Both the position numbers and the translations under genes were made by a program. DNA of 64,000 nucleotides from an uncultured Gammaproteobacteria bacterium. Lineage in GTDB: Bacteria > Patescibacteriota > Patescibacteriia > UBA1558 > GWA2-36-10. The notes under the pieces are model-generated. The model searched no databases. It saw only the letters and a program-made list of their open reading frames with translations, and had not been told where the DNA came from. The stretch lies in the NCBI GenBank assembly GCA_964633905.1, contig CAZWIT010000005.1:26610-90609 (forward strand), in the 5' to 3' direction. Positions 20,520 to 28,770 of the stretch are shown piece after piece (position 1 is the stretch's first letter; the number at the start of each line of letters is the position of its first letter).

Positions 20520-22292
20520 TCAAGCTATAAATCCTCCTACTTGTTTAGACCACAAGCGTTTATAAAAACCATCTTTCTTTTTTAATAACTCTTGGTGACT
20601 ACCCGTTTCAATAATTCTACCCTGATCAATAACTACAATTCTATCCATCTTCATAATTGTTGATAAACGATGAGCAATAACAATTACAGTTTTGTCTTGC
20701 ATTAAATTAGCAAGTGCTTTTTGGATTAATTCTTCTGACTGCGAATCAAGACTTGAAGTAGCTTCATCTAAAACTAAGATTGGCGCATTCTTAATAATTG
20801 CCCGAGCAATTGCTACTCGTTGTCTTTCACCACCAGAAAGTCTAACACCCCTTTCTCCTACAAAAGTTTCGTAAGCCTCGGTAAACCCTTTAATAAAATC
20901 ATGAGCATGCGCAAGTTTAGCCGCCTTAATTACCTCTCCTTCACTTGCTCCCCACAAGCCATAGGCAATATTTTCACTTAAGGTACGATGAAATAATACT
21001 GGATCTTGATTTACTAAAGCAATATTTTCCCACAAGCTTTCCTGACTAACATTACTAATATTTTGTCCGTCGAGCAATATCTGTCCTTTGGTCAAATCAT
21101 GTTGGCGCAATAAAATACTAGCAATGGTTGATTTACCACCACCCGACGGACCAACAATGGCTACTTTTTCTTTAGGCTTGATGCTTAAATTAAAATCTTT
21201 AATAACTTTTCTAGTTTGATTATAACTAAAACTAACATTATTAAATTCAATTTTACCAGCTGATATCTGCAAACGTTTAGCTTTTGGCAAATCAATAATT
21301 TCATGAGGAGTTTCTAAGGCCTCGGTCATTTCTTGAGCATCAGCCATGGCTTCATAATAATATCTAATAATGCGACCAAAGTCCCACAGACGATCAAACA
21401 TATTAATTAAATAAGTTTGAATCAAAACAAAGTCACCAATAGTAATTAAACCAGCTTGCCATAATTTTATTGCATAAAACATCAAGCCGATTTCTAAACC
21501 GGTCATCATCAAAGTCTGCACACCATCAAAAATATTGGTTAGATTCCAAGAAAATTGACGAATAGCTTGTAGCTGAGAAGTAATTTTACGAAAAGCATTA
21601 TTTTCTCTGGTGTAACCGTTAAATAATTTAATATTCAGTTGGTTAGTAATTGTATCAGCCAATACTCCACTTACCTTGGAATCTAGTTCACTCCGCTTTA
21701 CATCGTATTTTAATTTATAACGGCTAAAGAAAAAATTAATTACACAAAATAATATTACCCAAACTAAAACTGCCAGACCTACCCAGACTTGGCGTTGCAT
21801 CAATACATAAACTATTAAAGATACACTAACTATACTCGGAATTAAACTCCAGATAAAAACCTCCATAACAGCGCCAAAGGAGTAAACAAAACGATTCACC
21901 TTTTTGACTAGTGAACCGGCAAAGTTATTATTAAAAAACGAAACTGAATGTTTATGTAAATAAGCAAAGCAAGAATTGAACAAATCAGCCATTACTCGTG
22001 TCTGAAAATAACTAGAAGTAAAGCTTAATACTCGCCAACAGGACCAGGTAAATAATTTAATCCCTAAAATAATAATCAACACTTCTGTAAATTGCCCCAA
22101 GCTAGCAGCTGAACCAGTTGTAGTAAGTAAATCAAAAAACTTTTTATAATAAATCGGGCTCAAGACATTGCCGGCTGAAGCTAAAATTACAAAAATAAAA
22201 ATAACAAAAAAAGCTACACGGTATTTTAATACGTGCTTAAAATAATAAGCAAAAGTTTGCTTAGTAAGGTTTTTCTTATTTGTTTTATTCAT
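20520..22292 (-). CDS. ABC transporter, fused permease/ATP-binding exporter (MsbA-like)
   Basis: Six-TM N-terminal domain followed by Walker A GPSGGGKST, the signature LSGGERQRVAIARA, and Walker B ILVLDEATS. Confidence 0.85.
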   Translation of the reverse strand: MNKTNKKNLTKQTFAYYFKHVLKYRVAFFVIFIFVILASAGNVLSPIYYKKFFDLLTTTGSAASLGQFTEVLIIILGIKLFTWSCWRVLSFTSSYFQTRVMADLFNSCFAYLHKHSVSFFNNNFAGSLVKKVNRFVYSFGAVMEVFIWSLIPSIVSVSLIVYVLMQRQVWVGLAVLVWVILFCVINFFFSRYKLKYDVKRSELDSKVSGVLADTITNQLNIKLFNGYTRENNAFRKITSQLQAIRQFSWNLTNIFDGVQTLMMTGLEIGLMFYAIKLWQAGLITIGDFVLIQTYLINMFDRLWDFGRIIRYYYEAMADAQEMTEALETPHEIIDLPKAKRLQISAGKIEFNNVSFSYNQTRKVIKDFNLSIKPKEKVAIVGPSGGGKSTIASILLRQHDLTKGQILLDGQNISNVSQESLWENIALVNQDPVLFHRTLSENIAYGLWGASEGEVIKAAKLAHAHDFIKGFTEAYETFVGERGVRLSGGERQRVAIARAIIKNAPILVLDEATSSLDSQSEELIQKALANLMQDKTVIVIAHRLSTIMKMDRIVVIDQGRIIETGSHQELLKKKDGFYKRLWSKQVGGFIA

Positions 22293-22415
22293 AAATACTA
22301 AGACGTTTTAACTAGTCTTATATTACAACTATTTTAGATTATTGACTACCTGTTAAAAAATTGCTAGATTTTTTAGGTTGTTTCCGTTATTTACCAAAAA
22401 CGCCAAGGAGCAGCC

Positions 22416-22607
22416 GTGCGCGAACAAAATCAAAGCACTTTGTCTGATATTTGTGACTGCGACTGCCATGAATATGGACATTTAAAACATTGTGAATGTT
22501 GTCTAATATGCCCTTATTGTCAACAAAAAATTAAACACTACTTTTACGAAGACCACATTAATAATAATTGCCCCATAAAAAGCATCCCCATCCAAAGACT
22601 AGAGTAG
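22416..22607 (+). CDS. Small Cys/His-rich putative metal-binding protein (63 aa)
   Basis: GTG start with AAGGAG 7 nt upstream. The sequence CDCDCHEYGHLKHCECCLICPYCQQ...C has 11 Cys and 5 His. It is followed by a terminator hairpin at 22633-22665. Confidence 0.45.
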   Translation: MREQNQSTLSDICDCDCHEYGHLKHCECCLICPYCQQKIKHYFYEDHINNNCPIKSIPIQRLE

Positions 22608-22632
22608 CTAAAATAAACTTGGCCAAAATAAA

Positions 22633-22665
22633 TAGCCCTGAACCATGCGGCACAGGGCTATTTTT
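22633..22665. terminator. Bidirectional intrinsic terminator between the Cys-rich ORF and gdh
   Basis: TAGCCCTG-loop-CAGGGCTA hairpin flanked by an A-run upstream and a T-run downstream. Confidence 0.5.
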
Positions 22666-22680
22666 AATTTTATTTAAAGA

Positions 22681-23910
22681 TTAAAGTTGAGTTTTGATAG
22701 CAGCGGCTAGTCTTTCAATAGCAGTTATAAAAGCTGCCTTGCGTAAATCAATTTTATATTTTTCGCTATTAGCATAAACACCCCCCCAAGCTGTCATCAT
22801 TTTTTCTTTTAGCTGAGTAGCCACCTCTTCAGCCGTCCAATAATTATTACTCAAATTTTGTAACCATTCAAAATAAGAAACAGTTACGCCCCCAGCGTTA
22901 GCTAAGACATCAGGGATCAGTAAAATATTTTTATCGTGTAAAATCTCATCTGCCTCTGGCAAAGTTGGACCATTCGCAAGCTCTAAAACAATTTTAGCTT
23001 TTATTTCTTTAGCAATCTCTGCATTAATTTGATTTTCTAAAGCTGCTGGAATAATAATATCAACCGGTAAAGCAAAAAATTCTTCTTTACTTAGTTTCTT
23101 AGGCCCAACAAAATTATCTAAATTGCCACCAGCTTGTTTATGTTTTTTGACTTCTTCTAAATCTAAACCTTTAGCATCATAAACAGCGGCCGATGAGTCA
23201 GCGATAGCTACCACCTTATAGCCATTAGCCTTTAGTAAATCGGCCATTACGCTACCAGCATTACCAAAACCCTGAATAGCAACATTTAAATTTTTAGCTT
23301 TTAATTTCAAACCTTCAACAGCTGCTTCTAAAACGTAAAAACCACCTTGAGCTGTAGCTGTACCTCTACCTAGGGAACCTCCTAGCTCTACGGGCTTACC
23401 AGTAACTACGCCCGGACTTTTTTCACCAACTAATTTTGAATATTCATCAGCAATCCAAGCCATAATTTCTGGTGTTGTATAAACATCAGGAGCAGGAATA
23501 TCTTTTTTTGGTCCAATTACATCGCGAAAGGCCCTTACCCAAGCGCGTGACAATTGCTCTAATTCATTTTTAGACAAACTTTTAGTATCAACAATAATAC
23601 CACCCTTACCACCGCCCATAGGAATATCAACCACCGCACATTTGATAGCCATCCAAAAAGCTAAAGCTTTAACTTCGGATAAATCAACTTGCGGATGAAA
23701 ACGTAAACCACCTTTGTAAGGACCGCGGCTACTATTATATTGTACACGATAAGCTTGAAACAACTGCCAAGAGCCATCATCGCGCCTTAAAGGTAAACTA
23801 GCATCGACTACCCTTTCTGGTTCTGACAAACGAAGCAATACCTCTTTGTCTAATTTCATTATTTGAGCAGCCTTTTCTAGCTGCCTTAAAGCATTATCAA
23901 AAGCATTCAT
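22681..23910 (-). CDS. gdh: Glutamate dehydrogenase (Glu/Leu/Phe/Val dehydrogenase family)
   Basis: Catalytic-region motif around K (GGGKGG) and an NAD(P)-binding GFGNAGS Rossmann motif; 409 aa. Confidence 0.85.
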   Translation of the reverse strand: MNAFDNALRQLEKAAQIMKLDKEVLLRLSEPERVVDASLPLRRDDGSWQLFQAYRVQYNSSRGPYKGGLRFHPQVDLSEVKALAFWMAIKCAVVDIPMGGGKGGIIVDTKSLSKNELEQLSRAWVRAFRDVIGPKKDIPAPDVYTTPEIMAWIADEYSKLVGEKSPGVVTGKPVELGGSLGRGTATAQGGFYVLEAAVEGLKLKAKNLNVAIQGFGNAGSVMADLLKANGYKVVAIADSSAAVYDAKGLDLEEVKKHKQAGGNLDNFVGPKKLSKEEFFALPVDIIIPAALENQINAEIAKEIKAKIVLELANGPTLPEADEILHDKNILLIPDVLANAGGVTVSYFEWLQNLSNNYWTAEEVATQLKEKMMTAWGGVYANSEKYKIDLRKAAFITAIERLAAAIKTQL

Positions 23911-23930
23911 ATTTTTTTGTTTAATATTTA

Positions 23931-24878
23931 TTATTTACCCCAATCCTGACCAACAAGTTTACCACCCTGTAAATATTTACAGGCCTGCAGAGCAGCCTTG
24001 GCTCCTTCGCCAGCAGATATTACTACTTGTTTATAAGTAATTTGAGTTAGATCGCCAGCAGCAAAAACACCAGCAGCACTAGTCTCATTATCAGCCGAGA
24101 CTAATACTTCATTGGCTGAATTTAAATTAAGTAAATCTTTTAACCAAGCTGTTTTAGCCAAGTGCCCAATCTCTACAAAGATACCGTCCACTGCTAATAT
24201 TTGTTCTTGTTGATTAGCATCAAAATAAACCATGGCCTCTACCTTGTTCTGCCCCTTTATTTCTTTACTAATTCCATTAAAGATAACTTTAATATTATCT
24301 GTGTGCAAAACCTGATCAATCAAAACTTGTTCGCCCCTAAACTGATCGCCGCGCACCAAAACATAAACTTGCTTAGCAATTTTACTTAAATATTCAGCAG
24401 CATCCAAAGCCGCATTGCCACCGCCAACCACCACCACATTTTTGCCTTTATATAAAGGGCCATCGCAGGTAGCACAGTAAGCAACTCCCTTACCGGTTAA
24501 TTCTTTTTCACCAGGCACATCTAAATTTCTAGGTGTTAAGCCAAAGGCTAAGATGACAGCTCGTGCATTGATCTGTTGACCATCAACAGTTTTAACTAGA
24601 AAATTATTTTCAACTTTTTCAATCTTGTCTACTTCACTAAAAATAAAATTTGCACCAAAACTCTCTGCCTGCTCTTTCATTTTTTGGGCAAGCTCTGGAC
24701 CAGAAATTTTTTCATAGCCTGGATAATTTTCAATATTTTCGGTTAAGGCCATTTGTCCACCAATGTCTTTACTAATTACCAAAGTTTTAAAAGCACGACG
24801 CACCGCATAAATAGCCGCGGCTAACCCTGCTGGACCAGCACCTACCACTACCACGTCGTAATTTAAATTGTCTGCCAT
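23931..24878 (-). CDS. trxB: Thioredoxin-disulfide reductase
   Basis: FAD motif VVVVGAGPAGLAAA, redox-active CATCDG and a second GGGNAALD dinucleotide motif. The start was chosen at MADNLNYD rather than at the upstream in-frame Met, which overlaps trxA. Confidence 0.85.
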   Translation of the reverse strand: MADNLNYDVVVVGAGPAGLAAAIYAVRRAFKTLVISKDIGGQMALTENIENYPGYEKISGPELAQKMKEQAESFGANFIFSEVDKIEKVENNFLVKTVDGQQINARAVILAFGLTPRNLDVPGEKELTGKGVAYCATCDGPLYKGKNVVVVGGGNAALDAAEYLSKIAKQVYVLVRGDQFRGEQVLIDQVLHTDNIKVIFNGISKEIKGQNKVEAMVYFDANQQEQILAVDGIFVEIGHLAKTAWLKDLLNLNSANEVLVSADNETSAAGVFAAGDLTQITYKQVVISAGEGAKAALQACKYLQGGKLVGQDWGK

Positions 24879-24882
24879 ATTT

Positions 24883-25209
24883 TTAGGCTGCAAACTTATT
24901 AATTTTTTCAAGCAAGCTAGCCTTGCCTTGCATACCAATCATTTCATCAACCACCTGACCATCTTTAAATAATTTTAAAGTAGGAATGCTCATAATTTGA
25001 AACTCTTGGGCTGTTTGTTGATTTTCATCAACATTAAGCTTGCTAATTTTTATATTTTCTTTAGCTTTTAATTCTTCTGCTAGAGCTTCAATAATAGGAC
25101 CTTGCATTTTACAAGGACCACACCAAGGTGCCCAAAAATCTACCAGGGCTACCCCCTTAAAATCTTTAATCTCTTTTGAAAAATTTTGATCAGTTAATTC
25201 TATTGCCAT
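24883..25209 (-). CDS. trxA: Thioredoxin
   Basis: WCGPC active site (WAPWCGPCK); 108 aa. Confidence 0.9.
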   Translation of the reverse strand: MAIELTDQNFSKEIKDFKGVALVDFWAPWCGPCKMQGPIIEALAEELKAKENIKISKLNVDENQQTAQEFQIMSIPTLKLFKDGQVVDEMIGMQGKASLLEKINKFAA

Positions 25210-25268
25210 AAATTTATTTTAAATTATTTATTTAATTATCTTTTAAAATTATTATTTACTTTATAAGT

Positions 25269-25532
25269 TTAGGTGTGCTGAAAAAAAGTGTCAATTAAAT
25301 CCAAAACCTCCTTGCGCTTCAACATTGTTTGTCCGCGATAACAACCATTTAACTTAGCCGCGATTAAATTTTTCGCCACCGCATCCAAAGACGCCCGCGA
25401 AGCAAAGGCTACTCTAATAATCTCTTCTACTGGCCTTTGATCAACATACATTTTTTCAATGGCCTTTACTTGGCCACTAATACGGTGCAGTTGTGCAATA
25501 ATTTTTTCTGGCTGACAAACTTGTGCTTTCAT
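25269..25532 (-). CDS. CsoR/RcnR/FrmR-family (DUF156) metal- or thiol-sensing transcriptional repressor
   Basis: The core LHRISGQVKAIEKM matches the family R(L/I)xRIEGQ(V/I)RGI signature. The protein has only two Cys (QVCQ and NGCY) and no His-x3-Cys, so it resembles the CstR/FrmR-like subset. The start is placed at MKAQV. Confidence 0.6.
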   Translation of the reverse strand: MKAQVCQPEKIIAQLHRISGQVKAIEKMYVDQRPVEEIIRVAFASRASLDAVAKNLIAAKLNGCYRGQTMLKRKEVLDLIDTFFQHT

Positions 25533-25553
25533 TTTTATAAAAATATTATTTGT

Positions 25554-25574
25554 ATATACCCCTATAGGGTATAT
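25554..25574. promoter_or_regulatory. Palindromic operator candidate (ATATACCC-N5-GGGTATAT), 22 nt upstream of the CsoR-family gene
   Basis: An 8-bp inverted repeat with a 5-bp spacer. Its GC-rich core is flanked by AT, resembling known CsoR-family operators (TACCC...GGGTA type). It overlaps the putative promoter. Confidence 0.45.
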
Positions 25575-25654
25575 TAGCACAAAATAAAAAAACGGTCAAA
25601 TAAAAAAGTCCTGCTAAAAAGCAGGACCAAAATAACAAGAAACGTTTATCTTGC

Positions 25655-26497
25655 TTAGGACGAAAAAACAGAAGTAAATTTTTGACAAGTACAGCCTCTC
25701 AAACAATCCGTTTTACTCAAATGTTGAATCGTTGCCAACAAAACCTGAGACAAGCGCACCATATTATCAGACATTACCCTCTTAACATGATCACCTTTTA
25801 AAGGATCGCCTGTTTCTGGACAAAGATTACTAACGCAAGCCAACAACCCATAGCTCATACCTGCTTCGCGCGCTAAAACTGCCTCTGGAAAACAAGTAGA
25901 CATACTCAAAAAATCAATTCCCTCTTTGCGGTATTTTTCAATTTCAGCCCTAGTTTCAAATCTAGGACCTGGCAAAGTAGATCCTAAAATTCCATTGTGT
26001 TCAATTTTGCCGTGGCTTACATTAAATACTATTTCTGCTATTTTACTACAAAACAAATCATCCATTGATCTGTGAAAATTAGCTGAGTCAACACCAACCA
26101 TATTAGCAAAAGTAAAAGGCAAAGCAGTATAATCAATTGCATCTACTGGGCAATAAATTTCGCCAGTCTGTGGAACACAAACATTAACACTATTTCTAAT
26201 AGCACCAACTGCTGAAGTGGCTAATACTACTTTTACACCCAAAATCTGAGACAAAAGATACATGTATTTTTGCTGCGCATTAGTCTTAAGCAATTGATGT
26301 GGTAAAGAAAAATCACCAAAACAATGATGCCTATCAATAAAATAAATTATGTCACTGCCAATTTCTAAGGCATAATAAAAAATGTCATCACCATAAATAT
26401 GTTCAAAACGCTTAGCTTTTTGAAGCTTACTACCGGCACCAATTAAACTAAAGAAAAATTGCTCCATACCAGTGCCACCAATTATGCCAATCTTCAT
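25655..26497 (-). CDS. Purine nucleoside / 5'-methylthioadenosine phosphorylase family protein
   Basis: N-terminus MKIGIIGGTGM and a PNP/MTAP-fold central region. The start is set at MKIG, which is preceded by AAGGAG. A Cys-rich C-terminal tail (CLRGCTCQ) is unusual. Confidence 0.7.
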   Translation of the reverse strand: MKIGIIGGTGMEQFFFSLIGAGSKLQKAKRFEHIYGDDIFYYALEIGSDIIYFIDRHHCFGDFSLPHQLLKTNAQQKYMYLLSQILGVKVVLATSAVGAIRNSVNVCVPQTGEIYCPVDAIDYTALPFTFANMVGVDSANFHRSMDDLFCSKIAEIVFNVSHGKIEHNGILGSTLPGPRFETRAEIEKYRKEGIDFLSMSTCFPEAVLAREAGMSYGLLACVSNLCPETGDPLKGDHVKRVMSDNMVRLSQVLLATIQHLSKTDCLRGCTCQKFTSVFSS

Positions 26498-26659
26498 TTT
26501 TACTCCTTGTCTGTTAAGGGACATCTTGCCGGGACAATAAAACATCCCTACCTTAAACATTTGCTAGCACTTTGTCAAACTTAAAGTTTTTATATTTAAA
26601 ATTTTTTAAATAATTTTACTAATATTAGCTAAAATAATAAATTTTACGCAGAATTAGCT

Positions 26660-26690
26660 ATTTTAAAAACCTCATTTTATTGAGGTTTTT
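26660..26690 (-). terminator. Intrinsic terminator for the 26695-27096 gene
   Basis: AAACCTCA-loop-TGAGGTTT hairpin followed by a T-run on the minus strand. Confidence 0.5.
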
Positions 26691-26694
26691 AATC

Positions 26695-27096
26695 TTATTT
26701 TATATATTTTTCTTCAAAAGCTTTTTGATCTCCAAATTCTACAAAATCCTTATGGTGTTCTGGTGGTATAAAATTATGATCAGCCTTGTGCTTTATACCA
26801 CACCAATATTTTTCTGTTTTTCCAGCTATGGTCAAAGAATAATGCAATAAACCATTAGCATATCCACAATAAATACAATTTAGCTTTTGGAACAAGTTTA
26901 AATACTTTAGTTTATATCTATCAATTTTTATATACTCAGAACGCTTAACTAATTCAAAACCATAAACTGGAAAACTAATGTGATGATAGATCTCTATAAA
27001 AATATCTAGAATTACTAGTGGTATAAAAACCATCCAAATGAGTGGAATTAATAAAACGTGAATAATTATCTTTTCTCGGTGTTTAAAATAGTCCAT
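26695..27096 (-). CDS. Hypothetical membrane protein with Cys/His cluster
   Basis: 133 aa. Two N-terminal TM segments, then CIYCGY...C...H motifs. Confidence 0.4.
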   Translation of the reverse strand: MDYFKHREKIIIHVLLIPLIWMVFIPLVILDIFIEIYHHISFPVYGFELVKRSEYIKIDRYKLKYLNLFQKLNCIYCGYANGLLHYSLTIAGKTEKYWCGIKHKADHNFIPPEHHKDFVEFGDQKAFEEKYIK

Positions 27097-27578: not shown

Positions 27579-28019
27579 ATGTTTAATAAAAATCAAGCCA
27601 TTGTCAATAATAAAAGCATTGAAACCATTATTGGCCCATCTGTAAGGGTTGAGGGTGACTTTAAAGGCGAGGGAGATCTTATTATTGAGGGTATTTTAGT
27701 TGGCAGTTTACAAACTAAAAATAACCTAAAAATTGGAGAAAACGCAGTAGTAGAAGCCGGCATTAAGGCTAATAATGCCTTTATTTCAGGAAAAGTTAAA
27801 GGAAATCTAGTAATTAAAGGCAAATTAGAAATCACTGGCACCGCTATTATATTGGGCGATATTAAAACTCAACTTATCTCTATTGAAAGTGGAGCTATTA
27901 TACAGGGTTCTGTTACTATGCCTGTTAATGATGTAAGTAAAGAAGAGTCTCGTAAAAATAAAGAAAAAATATCTGAAACAACAGTAGAGGATAATATTAA
28001 TACTGTTGATCAAGCTTAA
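27579..28019 (+). CDS. Bactofilin (DUF583) cytoskeletal protein
   Basis: Repetitive beta-helical segments (EGDLIIEGILVGSL...NAVVEAGIKANNAFISGKVKGNLVIKGKLEITGTAIILGDIKTQLISIESGAIIQGSV) typical of the bactofilin core. Confidence 0.7.
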   Translation: MFNKNQAIVNNKSIETIIGPSVRVEGDFKGEGDLIIEGILVGSLQTKNNLKIGENAVVEAGIKANNAFISGKVKGNLVIKGKLEITGTAIILGDIKTQLISIESGAIIQGSVTMPVNDVSKEESRKNKEKISETTVEDNINTVDQA

Positions 28020-28026
28020 ATAAACT

Positions 28027-28770
28027 ATGTATTTATATATATACGATAGTTTCCTCAACGACAAAAAATATAACGATTTACTAATACAAATTGAAAAAAG
28101 GATTACCGATTTAGGCATCAAAGGACGAGTCGCCAGGTTATCTATCTTAAAAAACATGAAAGAGCTAATTACGGACGCTGTTAAAGACGGCGTAAGCACC
28201 GTAGTTGTTATTGGTAATGTTCAAACTTTTGCTAAGGTTATTAATATTGTGGCTGATTTAGATGTGGTTTTAGGCTTAATTCCAGTGGATAATGACAACC
28301 GCATTGCTAAAATGCTTGGTATACCACCAAAGGTTTTGGCCTGTGATGTAATTGCTTCCCGTATTGTTAAAAAAATTGACCTTGGTATTATTAATAATCA
28401 TTATTTTATTGGCAGTGCTGAAATTAATAATAGTGAAGTATTCTTAGAAAATAATGGCTATACTATTCAACCTACTACTACCAACAATCGTATTGTAATT
28501 TATAATTTTGCTAGCCCCAGTGGAAACATTAGCTCAAGTCCCATTGATGGCATTTTAGAAGCCGTAATAACGCCCATTAAAAGCACCTGGTTGGGTAAAA
28601 AAGAGATTACTGGTACAGTTTTACCTTTTACTAGTTTGCGTATTGCTAGCCAAGCACAGGAGCAAGTTTCTATTTTAAGTGATGAACAAACTATCATGAA
28701 AACTCCGGCTGAAATAAAAATAGCCCCTCAAAAACTTAAAGTAATTGTGGGGCCAGAACGTTGTTTTTAA
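28027..28770 (+). CDS. Diacylglycerol/lipid kinase catalytic-domain-like protein with degenerate active-site motif
   Basis: YegS/BmrU-like layout (ARLSILKN...VVVIGNVQT...VLGLIPVDNDN). The canonical GGDGT is replaced by IGNVQT. Confidence 0.45.
   Translation: MYLYIYDSFLNDKKYNDLLIQIEKRITDLGIKGRVARLSILKNMKELITDAVKDGVSTVVVIGNVQTFAKVINIVADLDVVLGLIPVDNDNRIAKMLGIPPKVLACDVIASRIVKKIDLGIINNHYFIGSAEINNSEVFLENNGYTIQPTTTNNRIVIYNFASPSGNISSSPIDGILEAVITPIKSTWLGKKEITGTVLPFTSLRIASQAQEQVSILSDEQTIMKTPAEIKIAPQKLKVIVGPERCF

Follow-up and report, generated by a model that had tools for sequence, protein, structure and literature searches.

What does a repressor of the CsoR family sense when it stands in front of the genes of the thioredoxin system? 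This question is raised by a locus in the 64,000-nt window analysed here, i.e. the whole stretch taken from contig CAZWIT010000005.1 of the GenBank assembly GCA_964633905.1. In this locus, the gene of a small regulator precedes trxA, trxB and gdh, which encode thioredoxin (Trx), thioredoxin reductase (TrxR) and glutamate dehydrogenase (GDH), respectively. Members of the CsoR/RcnR/FrmR superfamily, to which the regulator belongs, are homotetramers (dimers of dimers) and bind DNA without a classical DNA-binding domain. Based on sequence comparison, the regulator is probably a cysteine-oxidation switch, which derepresses its own trxA-trxB-gdh operon and does so without a metal site. The elements on which this proposal is built are the following (positions are those of the window):

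25571 to 25599, minus strand: near-consensus sigma-70-type promoter from a promoter scan, with the -35 box TTGACC (25599-25594), a 17-nt spacer and the extended -10 element TGcTAATAT (hexamer 25576-25571).
25554 to 25574, no strand assigned: predicted operator, a perfect palindrome ATATACCC-N5-GGGTATAT, with the 17-bp core ATACCC-N5-GGGTAT at 25556-25572.
25269 to 25532, minus strand: regulator gene with ATG start, encoding an 87-aa CsoR-family repressor (Pfam match, PF02583).
24883 to 25209, minus strand: trxA, thioredoxin with the motif WCGPC (PF00085, 109 bits; TIGR01068, 120 bits, above cut-off).
23931 to 24878, minus strand: trxB, low-molecular-weight thioredoxin reductase with the motif CATC (PF07992, 148 bits; TIGR01292, 341 bits against a cut-off of 343).
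22681 to 23910, minus strand: gdh, glutamate dehydrogenase (PF00208 and PF02812).

A first-pass annotation had placed a CsoR-family gene upstream of trxA and trxB on the same strand with no terminator between the regulator and trxA. Both statements are borne out by the Pfam and TIGRFAM matches and by a terminator and promoter scan of the window, which revealed no terminator-like site in the regulator-trxA spacer. The intergenic gaps are 59 nt (regulator-trxA), 4 nt (trxA-trxB) and 20 nt (trxB-gdh). The architecture of the csoR-like-trxA-trxB operon suggested there is strongly supported, and gdh has to be added to it as a conserved fourth gene. Position 25580, given there as the upstream limit, is not the real start but a GTG further upstream, at which a longer, mechanically called open reading frame (ORF) begins. 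The resulting 103-aa ORF was rejected, since it crosses the operator and begins 5' of the predicted transcription start; it is also ruled out by the N-termini of the orthologs, which line up on M-x(3-4)-C. A promoter-like site, TTGACA-17-TAAACT, was found at 25294-25266 on the minus strand in the 3' end of the regulator gene, where it overlaps the stop codon. As a conserved internal promoter it was rejected, since it is common only to the window and to the 95% identical locus L001. In seven loci no promoter-like site is present before trxA, and none is positionally conserved across the loci.

The assignment of the regulator to its family is clear. It matches the Pfam family Trns_repr_metal (PF02583, DUF156) over residues 9-80 with 48.5 bits, against a cut-off of 22.8, and a phmmer search of the PDB returned InrS, CsoR, CstR and FrmR. 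No curated NCBIfam model matches it at E<=1e-5. The single-chain AlphaFold2 (AF2) model, with a pLDDT of 82.9, displays helices at residues 8-30, 35-61 and 73-85, i.e. the three-helix protomer. The top 18 Foldseek matches in the PDB are all CsoR-family chains, with probabilities of 0.97-1.00.

The sensory residues are a different matter. At the positions W-X-Y-Z the window protein has the pattern C-V-K-C, made up of Cys6, Val35, Lys60 and Cys64. The two cysteines are the only ones present, and the His-x3-Cys of the Cu(I) site is replaced by K60-x3-C64, as the first-pass annotation had noted in counting two Cys and no such site. Structure-based alignments are ungapped across the sensory positions. 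Here, Val35 aligns with the X Cys of InrS (C53), of Geobacillus CsoR, of CsoR-Gz and of S. pneumoniae CstR (SpCstR, C30), Lys60 with the Y His (Asn55 in SpCstR) and Cys64 with the Z Cys. Residues 9-62 align with residues 9-62 of FrmR, so that the numbering is collinear. Cys6 is part of a C-x-P motif before helix 1. In the AF2 model, it precedes helix 1 by two residues and Cys64 follows helix 2 by three, which puts both at one end of the antiparallel hairpin. According to PMC8643695, RcnR and InrS combine the Z ligand with an N-terminal W ligand in one site. Together with the modeled helix boundaries, this analogy suggests that Cys6 and Cys64 are close in space.

The classes described in PMC8643695, a survey of the whole family from 2021, are x-C-H-C, x-C-H-H, H-C-H-H, P-C-H-x, H-C-H-C and x-C-x-C, all of which have a Cys at X. 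By sequence, C-V-K-C falls outside the classes of this source, whose several uncharacterised clusters could include such proteins. Judged by the defining residues, the regulator is neither a Cu(I)-sensing CsoR nor a CstR nor a FrmR. The first-pass annotation was therefore right to separate it from copper-sensing CsoR, as which it does not align when compared with characterised family members. Its view that the protein is closer to CstR or FrmR does not hold, since the X position is Val35 and Pro2 is absent.

This pattern is not a peculiarity of one protein. A genome scan with one genome per species yielded 24 loci with regulator relatives of 48-95% identity, all of them named Patescibacteria, Parcubacteria or Komeilibacteria except those under generic metagenome labels. 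An exhaustive profile search revealed a small close subfamily, with two 50%-identity clusters above 100 bits, which merges gradually into a large group of proteins, most of them from Patescibacteria. Subtypes were called by alignment to the subfamily profile. The unique proteins with an N-terminal Cys (n=160) have the Z Cys in 159 cases and the X Cys in only 70, and their main types are C-C-E-C, C-[VIL]-K-C and C-[IV]-Y-C. The type of the window protein, C-[VIL]-K-C, comprises 60 unique sequences, in which both the N-terminal Cys and the Z Cys are present in 60/60 and X is V, I or L throughout. Among 27 members of 23-70% identity only seven columns are invariant, which include Cys6 and Cys64. 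Lys60 is invariant in the window subfamily, and relatives on the same operon have Glu or Tyr at this position. At the X position, changes of C to S, A or G occur as isolated events within otherwise near-identical C-C-E-C sequences.

More distant relatives linked to trx follow other patterns. L054-L066 have the X and Z Cys without an N-terminal Cys, and L067 and L077 have the Z Cys as their single cysteine, with Pro at X and likewise without an N-terminal Cys. This single-Cys version must work differently, perhaps via a Z-Z' disulfide or via S-thiolation. No residue but the Z Cys is shared by all members of the trx-linked branch, and since x-C-x-C and Z-only relatives share the operon, its partner appears to be evolutionarily flexible. 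Eight metagenome-assembled genome records (L001, L003, L005, L010, L012, L019, L021 and L024) are labelled 'uncultured Gammaproteobacteria bacterium' despite a Patescibacteria-type operon; this label is probably generic or wrong.

The gene order is as conserved as the cysteines. In the genome loci, trxA lies directly 3' of the regulator in 24 of 24 cases, with a spacer below 40 nt in 19 of 25 loci, and trxB comes next in 20 of the 21 loci whose sequence extends far enough, followed by gdh in nearly all. The contexts of distant relatives, which cover all subtypes, have the regulator followed by trxA in nine of nine cases and then by trxB-gdh as far as the contigs reach. A further 55 loci came from a metagenome scan. 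Here, trxA is next to all 19 regulators with an N-terminal Cys, and downstream of all 12 distant regulators without it (ten x-C-x-C and two Z-only); in L065 it lies ~1 kb downstream of the regulator, leaving room for one gene. The order regulator-trxA-trxB-gdh was found at about 60 loci in all, nearly all of which are named Patescibacteria. On the contrary, in 27 family loci without a link to trx, about half of them classical x-C-H-C, the flanks examined contain neither trxA nor trxB nor gdh. Judged from these gene contexts, Patescibacteria have a conserved operon made up of the regulator gene, trxA, trxB and gdh, and the trx linkage is specific to this branch of the CsoR family.

The gene content after gdh varies between loci, and a few loci differ within the operon. 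L012 (4266-5833) has no trxB in the operon, and trxA is directly followed by gdh. In L006 (5566-6711) and L017 (5595-6728), a short malic enzyme gene is located between trxB and gdh, with NADP-dependent malic enzyme as the best NCBIfam similarity. In L032, a glutaredoxin gene (103-351) lies 5' of the regulator, giving a grx-regulator-trxA-trxB-gdh operon, and a palindrome CCCTATAC-TG-GTATAGGG is present at the promoter before grx. Glutaredoxin and malic enzyme as accessory genes fit a redox role of the operon. The presence of gdh and malic enzyme suggests, at the level of gene order, that NAD(P)H-regenerating dehydrogenases are co-transcribed with TrxR in Patescibacteria.

How the regulator probably finds its operon can be read from the promoter. 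The palindrome, which on the coding strand is ATATACCC-TATAG-GGGTATAT, consists of two arms (25554-25561 and 25567-25574) separated by a 5-nt spacer. It is thus perfect (8/8 complementary) and not 'near-perfect', as had been annotated, and lies 21 nt and not 22 from the ATG; the palindrome itself was correctly noticed, and the spacer quoted for it was that of the plus strand. The GC-core and AT-flank architecture ascribed to it also stands, since the predicted site has the G/C tract flanked by AT-rich inverted repeats which superfamily operators display at their own promoters. Since its left arm begins inside the -10 hexamer, the palindrome covers the final bases of the -10 box as well as the expected transcription start.

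For a 64-kb window with 34.8% GC, ~0.002 chance copies of the exact ATACCC-N5-GGGTAT are expected, and no second copy exists in the window even when 2-3 mismatches are allowed. Since inverted repeats of the generic 8-5-8 form are not uncommon, with six in the window, it is conservation that has to decide. In 25/25 orthologous loci including the window, all 12 arm bases agree; 24 of these loci were scored directly as promoters, while L008 was read from the sequence because its start codon lies inside the palindrome. The adjacent columns are only 33-50% identical, and the regulators of these 25 loci are only 48-95% identical, the arms being nonetheless invariant. TTGACA, TG and the T/A positions of the -10 box are conserved in 83-100% of the 24 aligned orthologous promoters. 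The palindrome has a fixed position directly after the -10 box of TTGACA-17-TG-n-TAATAT, while the interval between it and the start codon ranges from 0 to 23 nt, which ties the operator to the promoter and not to the ribosome-binding region. Furthermore, the arms display no compensatory variation and the left arm would remain untranscribed, which argues for a protein-binding DNA site and not for an RNA hairpin. In line with this, an E-value scan of 22000-27000 found no Rfam family near the gathering score, and the T-run context of a terminator is absent at the loci whose palindrome abuts the ATG.

In L008 (~150-190; protein P0007), the start codon is located at the palindrome centre, 6-7 nt after the -10 box, and by its sequence the mRNA is probably leaderless. 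Four further loci have the palindrome immediately before the ATG, where its GGG half may additionally serve as a Shine-Dalgarno-like element.

Among the data at hand, it is the co-variation of operator and regulator across the compared sequences that most supports the adjacent regulator as the reader of the palindrome. All 25 unique K/R-type regulators carry ATACCC-N5-GGGTAT (type 1), whereas all 16 C-C-E-C regulators carry TACT...AGTA and none of them the type-1 site. Examples of the latter are ATACT-G7-AGTAT, which is the 'type 2' pattern of RcnR and FrmR, ATACTACCTACCAGTA and the long palindrome ATACTATATACTAGTATATAGTAT. The Z-Cys-only regulators L067 and L077 use ATACCC-N5-GGGTAT, as in the window. 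In every subtype examined, the operator lies on or just after the -10 box.

For the mechanism, the following model is proposed. The reduced tetramer would bind ATACCC-N5-GGGTAT and occlude the -10 box and the transcription start, by which a single transcript for the regulator, thioredoxin, thioredoxin reductase and glutamate dehydrogenase would be repressed. Thiol or oxidative stress would then oxidise Cys64, with Cys6 as the likely partner in this subfamily. The oxidised thiols, present as a disulfide or another S-modification, would lower the DNA affinity and lead to derepression; an intra-chain disulfide, an inter-chain disulfide, S-thiolation or a persulfide bridge are conceivable chemistries. 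The induced TrxA/TrxB would re-reduce the cellular thiols and probably also the repressor, closing a negative feedback loop. The NAD(P)H used by TrxB may come from GDH and, in some relatives, also from malic enzyme. That the operon answers to thiol stress, as had also been put forward in the first-pass annotation, is what we infer from this arrangement.

Several observations weigh against this oxidation switch. The promoter-like site at 25294-25266 might drive a basal expression of trxA without operator control. The N-terminal Cys is not universally required, because L054-L066 as well as L067 and L077 are linked to trx without it; the partner of Cys64 may therefore differ between lineages or be another molecule. 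In addition, two thiolates could also bind Cu(I).

A broader proposal can be made, which goes beyond the single locus and is tentative, with the chances somewhat against it as a whole. Patescibacteria and some relatives would use a dedicated, hitherto undescribed CsoR-family class of thiol switches over a self-contained 'reducing-power' operon, consisting of Trx, TrxR and either GDH or malic enzyme as a source of NAD(P)H. The sensing pair would have migrated within the class, from the classical inter-protomer X-Z pair (x-C-x-C) via a three-Cys intermediate (C-C-E-C) to a pair of the N-terminal Cys and the Z Cys (C-V-K-C). Thioredoxin would re-reduce the repressor, the operon would be a main redox-stress regulon of these reduced genomes, and the class would contain the first CsoR-family sensor without an X Cys.

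The closest rival to the oxidation switch is a sensor of persulfides or reactive sulfur species like CstR, in which the two cysteines would become joined by a di-, tri- or tetrasulfide and Trx would reduce protein persulfides. CstR from S. aureus, E. faecalis and S. pneumoniae/S. mitis (PDB 7MQ1-3) has the same fold and Pfam family, is Cys-based and likewise combines a dithiol with the absence of a metal-binding His, and its Z Cys is shared (SpCstR C59 corresponds to Cys64). The operators are nearly identical, too: the window operator ATATACCCTATAGGGGTATAT and the S. mitis cst operator ATATACCCTTATGGGGTATAT (PMC8643695) agree in 18/21 positions, and the three differences all lie in the spacer. 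Furthermore, trx-linked x-C-x-C relatives exist, and thioredoxin-like proteins of S. aureus reduce persulfides according to PMC6196236. However, the X Cys of CstR (SaCstR C31, SpCstR C30) is Val35 in the window protein. According to PMC8643695, this Cys is the reactive one of CstR and the sole invariant one in cluster 10; it pairs across protomers with the Z Cys, whereas the window subfamily lacks it in 60/60 sequences. SpCstR C9 was considered as an equivalent of Cys6 and rejected, since it aligns with Gln14 inside helix 1. The regulons differ as well. CstR controls genes of sulfide and persulfide detoxification, namely rhodaneses, CoA-persulfide reductase (CoAPR), sulfide:quinone reductase (SQR), persulfide dioxygenase (PDO) and TauE, whereas the window regulator precedes trxA-trxB-gdh and is found in Patescibacteria. 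CstR-type target genes are in the operon at no examined locus; in particular, no rhodanese, CoAPR, SQR or PDO was found at the ~60 loci. A CstR-like persulfide sensor is therefore considered unlikely.

A reaction with aldehydes or other electrophiles as in FrmR, where Cys64 would be alkylated or methylene-bridged to a nearby amine, of Lys60 or of the N-terminal region, and thereby release the DNA, would fit the collinear numbering, the invariance of Lys60 in the window subfamily and the fact that in FrmR (P-C-H-x) an N-terminal residue takes part in sensing (PMC8643695). RcnR (H-C-H-H) and InrS (H-C-H-C) also have an N-terminal W residue in the sensory site, and the positions X=35, Y=60 and Z=64 are collinear for FrmR and RcnR. 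Relatives of the window protein even use the type-2 operator TACT-G7-AGTA of RcnR and FrmR on the same operon. Yet both residues of the methylene bridge of FrmR are absent, with Lys in place of Pro2 and Val in place of Cys35. In addition, relatives controlling the same operon have Glu or Tyr instead of Lys60, and the operon contains neither an aldehyde dehydrogenase nor a frmA-like gene. Together, this makes the chemistry improbable. A metal sensor, e.g. with Cu(I) bound by two thiolates or by three in the C-C-E-C relatives, whose three cysteines could make an S3 site, is suggested by the naming of the Pfam family for metal sensing and by database names of relatives such as 'metal-sensing transcriptional repressor'. 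Cu(I)-sensing CsoR (x-C-H-C; B. subtilis, M. tuberculosis, Geobacillus 4M1P and S. lividans 4ADZ) shares the family, the fold and the regulator-first autoregulated operon, and in the control locus L058 the site before a classical CsoR-like gene has the same type-1 arms ATACCC/GGGTAT as the window operator. Nevertheless, the X Cys, the Y His and the copZA neighbours of this class are missing: Lys, Glu or Tyr stands in place of the Y His, the X Cys was lost more than once, and copA or copZ is present neither in the context of the window operon nor in those of the distant subtypes examined. No locus contains rcnA or another efflux gene, and the targets are Trx, TrxR and GDH, while in the 27 family loci without trx linkage, including those of the x-C-H-C class, trxA adjoins none of the regulators. 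With respect to RcnR and InrS, their His3 is Ala in the window protein, there are no His ligands and no efflux pump, and only the Z Cys is common. Metal sensing thus appears decidedly improbable. Finally, the palindrome might be bound by another factor or form an RNA hairpin, and the regulator might act elsewhere or as a non-sensing autoregulator, a view to which the frequency of generic inverted repeats in the window lends some weight. Against this stands the switch of the operator type with the regulator subtype (25/25 versus 0/16 for the type-1 site), as do the left arm in and next to the -10 box, which would remain untranscribed, the invariant arms and the lack of an Rfam match or T-run context mentioned above. 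The invariance of both cysteines argues against a protein that does not sense, and this last explanation seems very improbable.

Preferring the thiol-oxidation switch places the regulator next to functionally related systems. RsrA-SigR (trxBA of Streptomyces), Spx (trxA/trxB of Firmicutes) and OxyR are thiol-disulfide switches acting on the thioredoxin system with homeostatic feedback. They belong to unrelated families with other mechanisms, namely an anti-sigma factor, an ArsC-like protein binding RNA polymerase and a LysR activator, respectively, and unlike these the CsoR-type repressor of the window would act by promoter occlusion. For Spx, activation of trxA has been described (PMC2801614). 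Within the CsoR family, a trx-linked group is proposed, which is characterised by a regulator 5' of trxA(-trxB-gdh), an invariant Z Cys and a palindrome on the -10 box; all three were found here.

The operon is framed by the following features:

25655 to 26560, minus strand: PNP/MTAP-like phosphorylase gene, the 5' neighbour of the operon (gene annotation in the window).
25607 to 25628, minus strand: intrinsic terminator of the PNP/MTAP-like gene from a terminator scan, GGTCCTGC-TTTT-TAGCAGGACT followed by a T run.
22621 to 22637, minus strand: weak terminator-like hairpin 44 nt after gdh, a possible operon end, of low confidence with a stem of only 5 bp.

The terminator of the PNP/MTAP-like gene shields the operon from upstream transcription, and a similar hairpin with a T run is present 5' of the -35 box in many orthologous loci. 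Convergent with gdh lies a putative gene, a 63-aa ORF at 22416-22607 on the plus strand with 11 Cys (CDCDC, CECCLICPYC) and no Pfam match. Another ORF without a Pfam match (133 aa, 26695-27096, minus strand) has a predicted hydrophobic N-terminal stretch and the Cys/His motifs CIYCGYANG...YWCGIKH. A bactofilin gene followed by a DAGK-like kinase gene is located near the operon at 27579-28770 on the plus strand. A bactofilin gene is likewise near the operon in the distant relatives L025, L030, L033 and L034, in the last of which it alone is identifiable. As far as gene order can tell, this neighbourhood indicates a wider synteny around the operon locus in Patescibacteria.

Patescibacteria have few transcription factors, and their gene regulation and redox biology are almost unknown. 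In the literature, no report was found which links a CsoR-family regulator to trxA/trxB or describes such regulators in Patescibacteria or the Candidate Phyla Radiation, the cluster logos and neighbourhoods of PMC8643695 being outside this comparison. The scaffold and the operator type are thus known, whereas the arrangement of the sensory residues, the regulon of thioredoxin system and dehydrogenases, and the phylum are new.

For one transcription factor of the Patescibacteria, a plausible function together with a precise predicted operator can now be given, and the database names 'metal-sensing repressor' and 'FrmR family' are corrected. A conserved group which drops the X Cys and fixes an N-terminal Cys would mean that the CsoR scaffold can rebuild its sensory site. 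The natural series x-C-x-C, C-C-E-C, C-h-K/Y-C and Z-only would therefore be suited to studying the evolution of allosteric thiol switches. That trxA-trxB are constantly linked with gdh, and in some loci with malic enzyme, suggests how metabolically minimal cells may feed NAD(P)H to their thioredoxin reductase.

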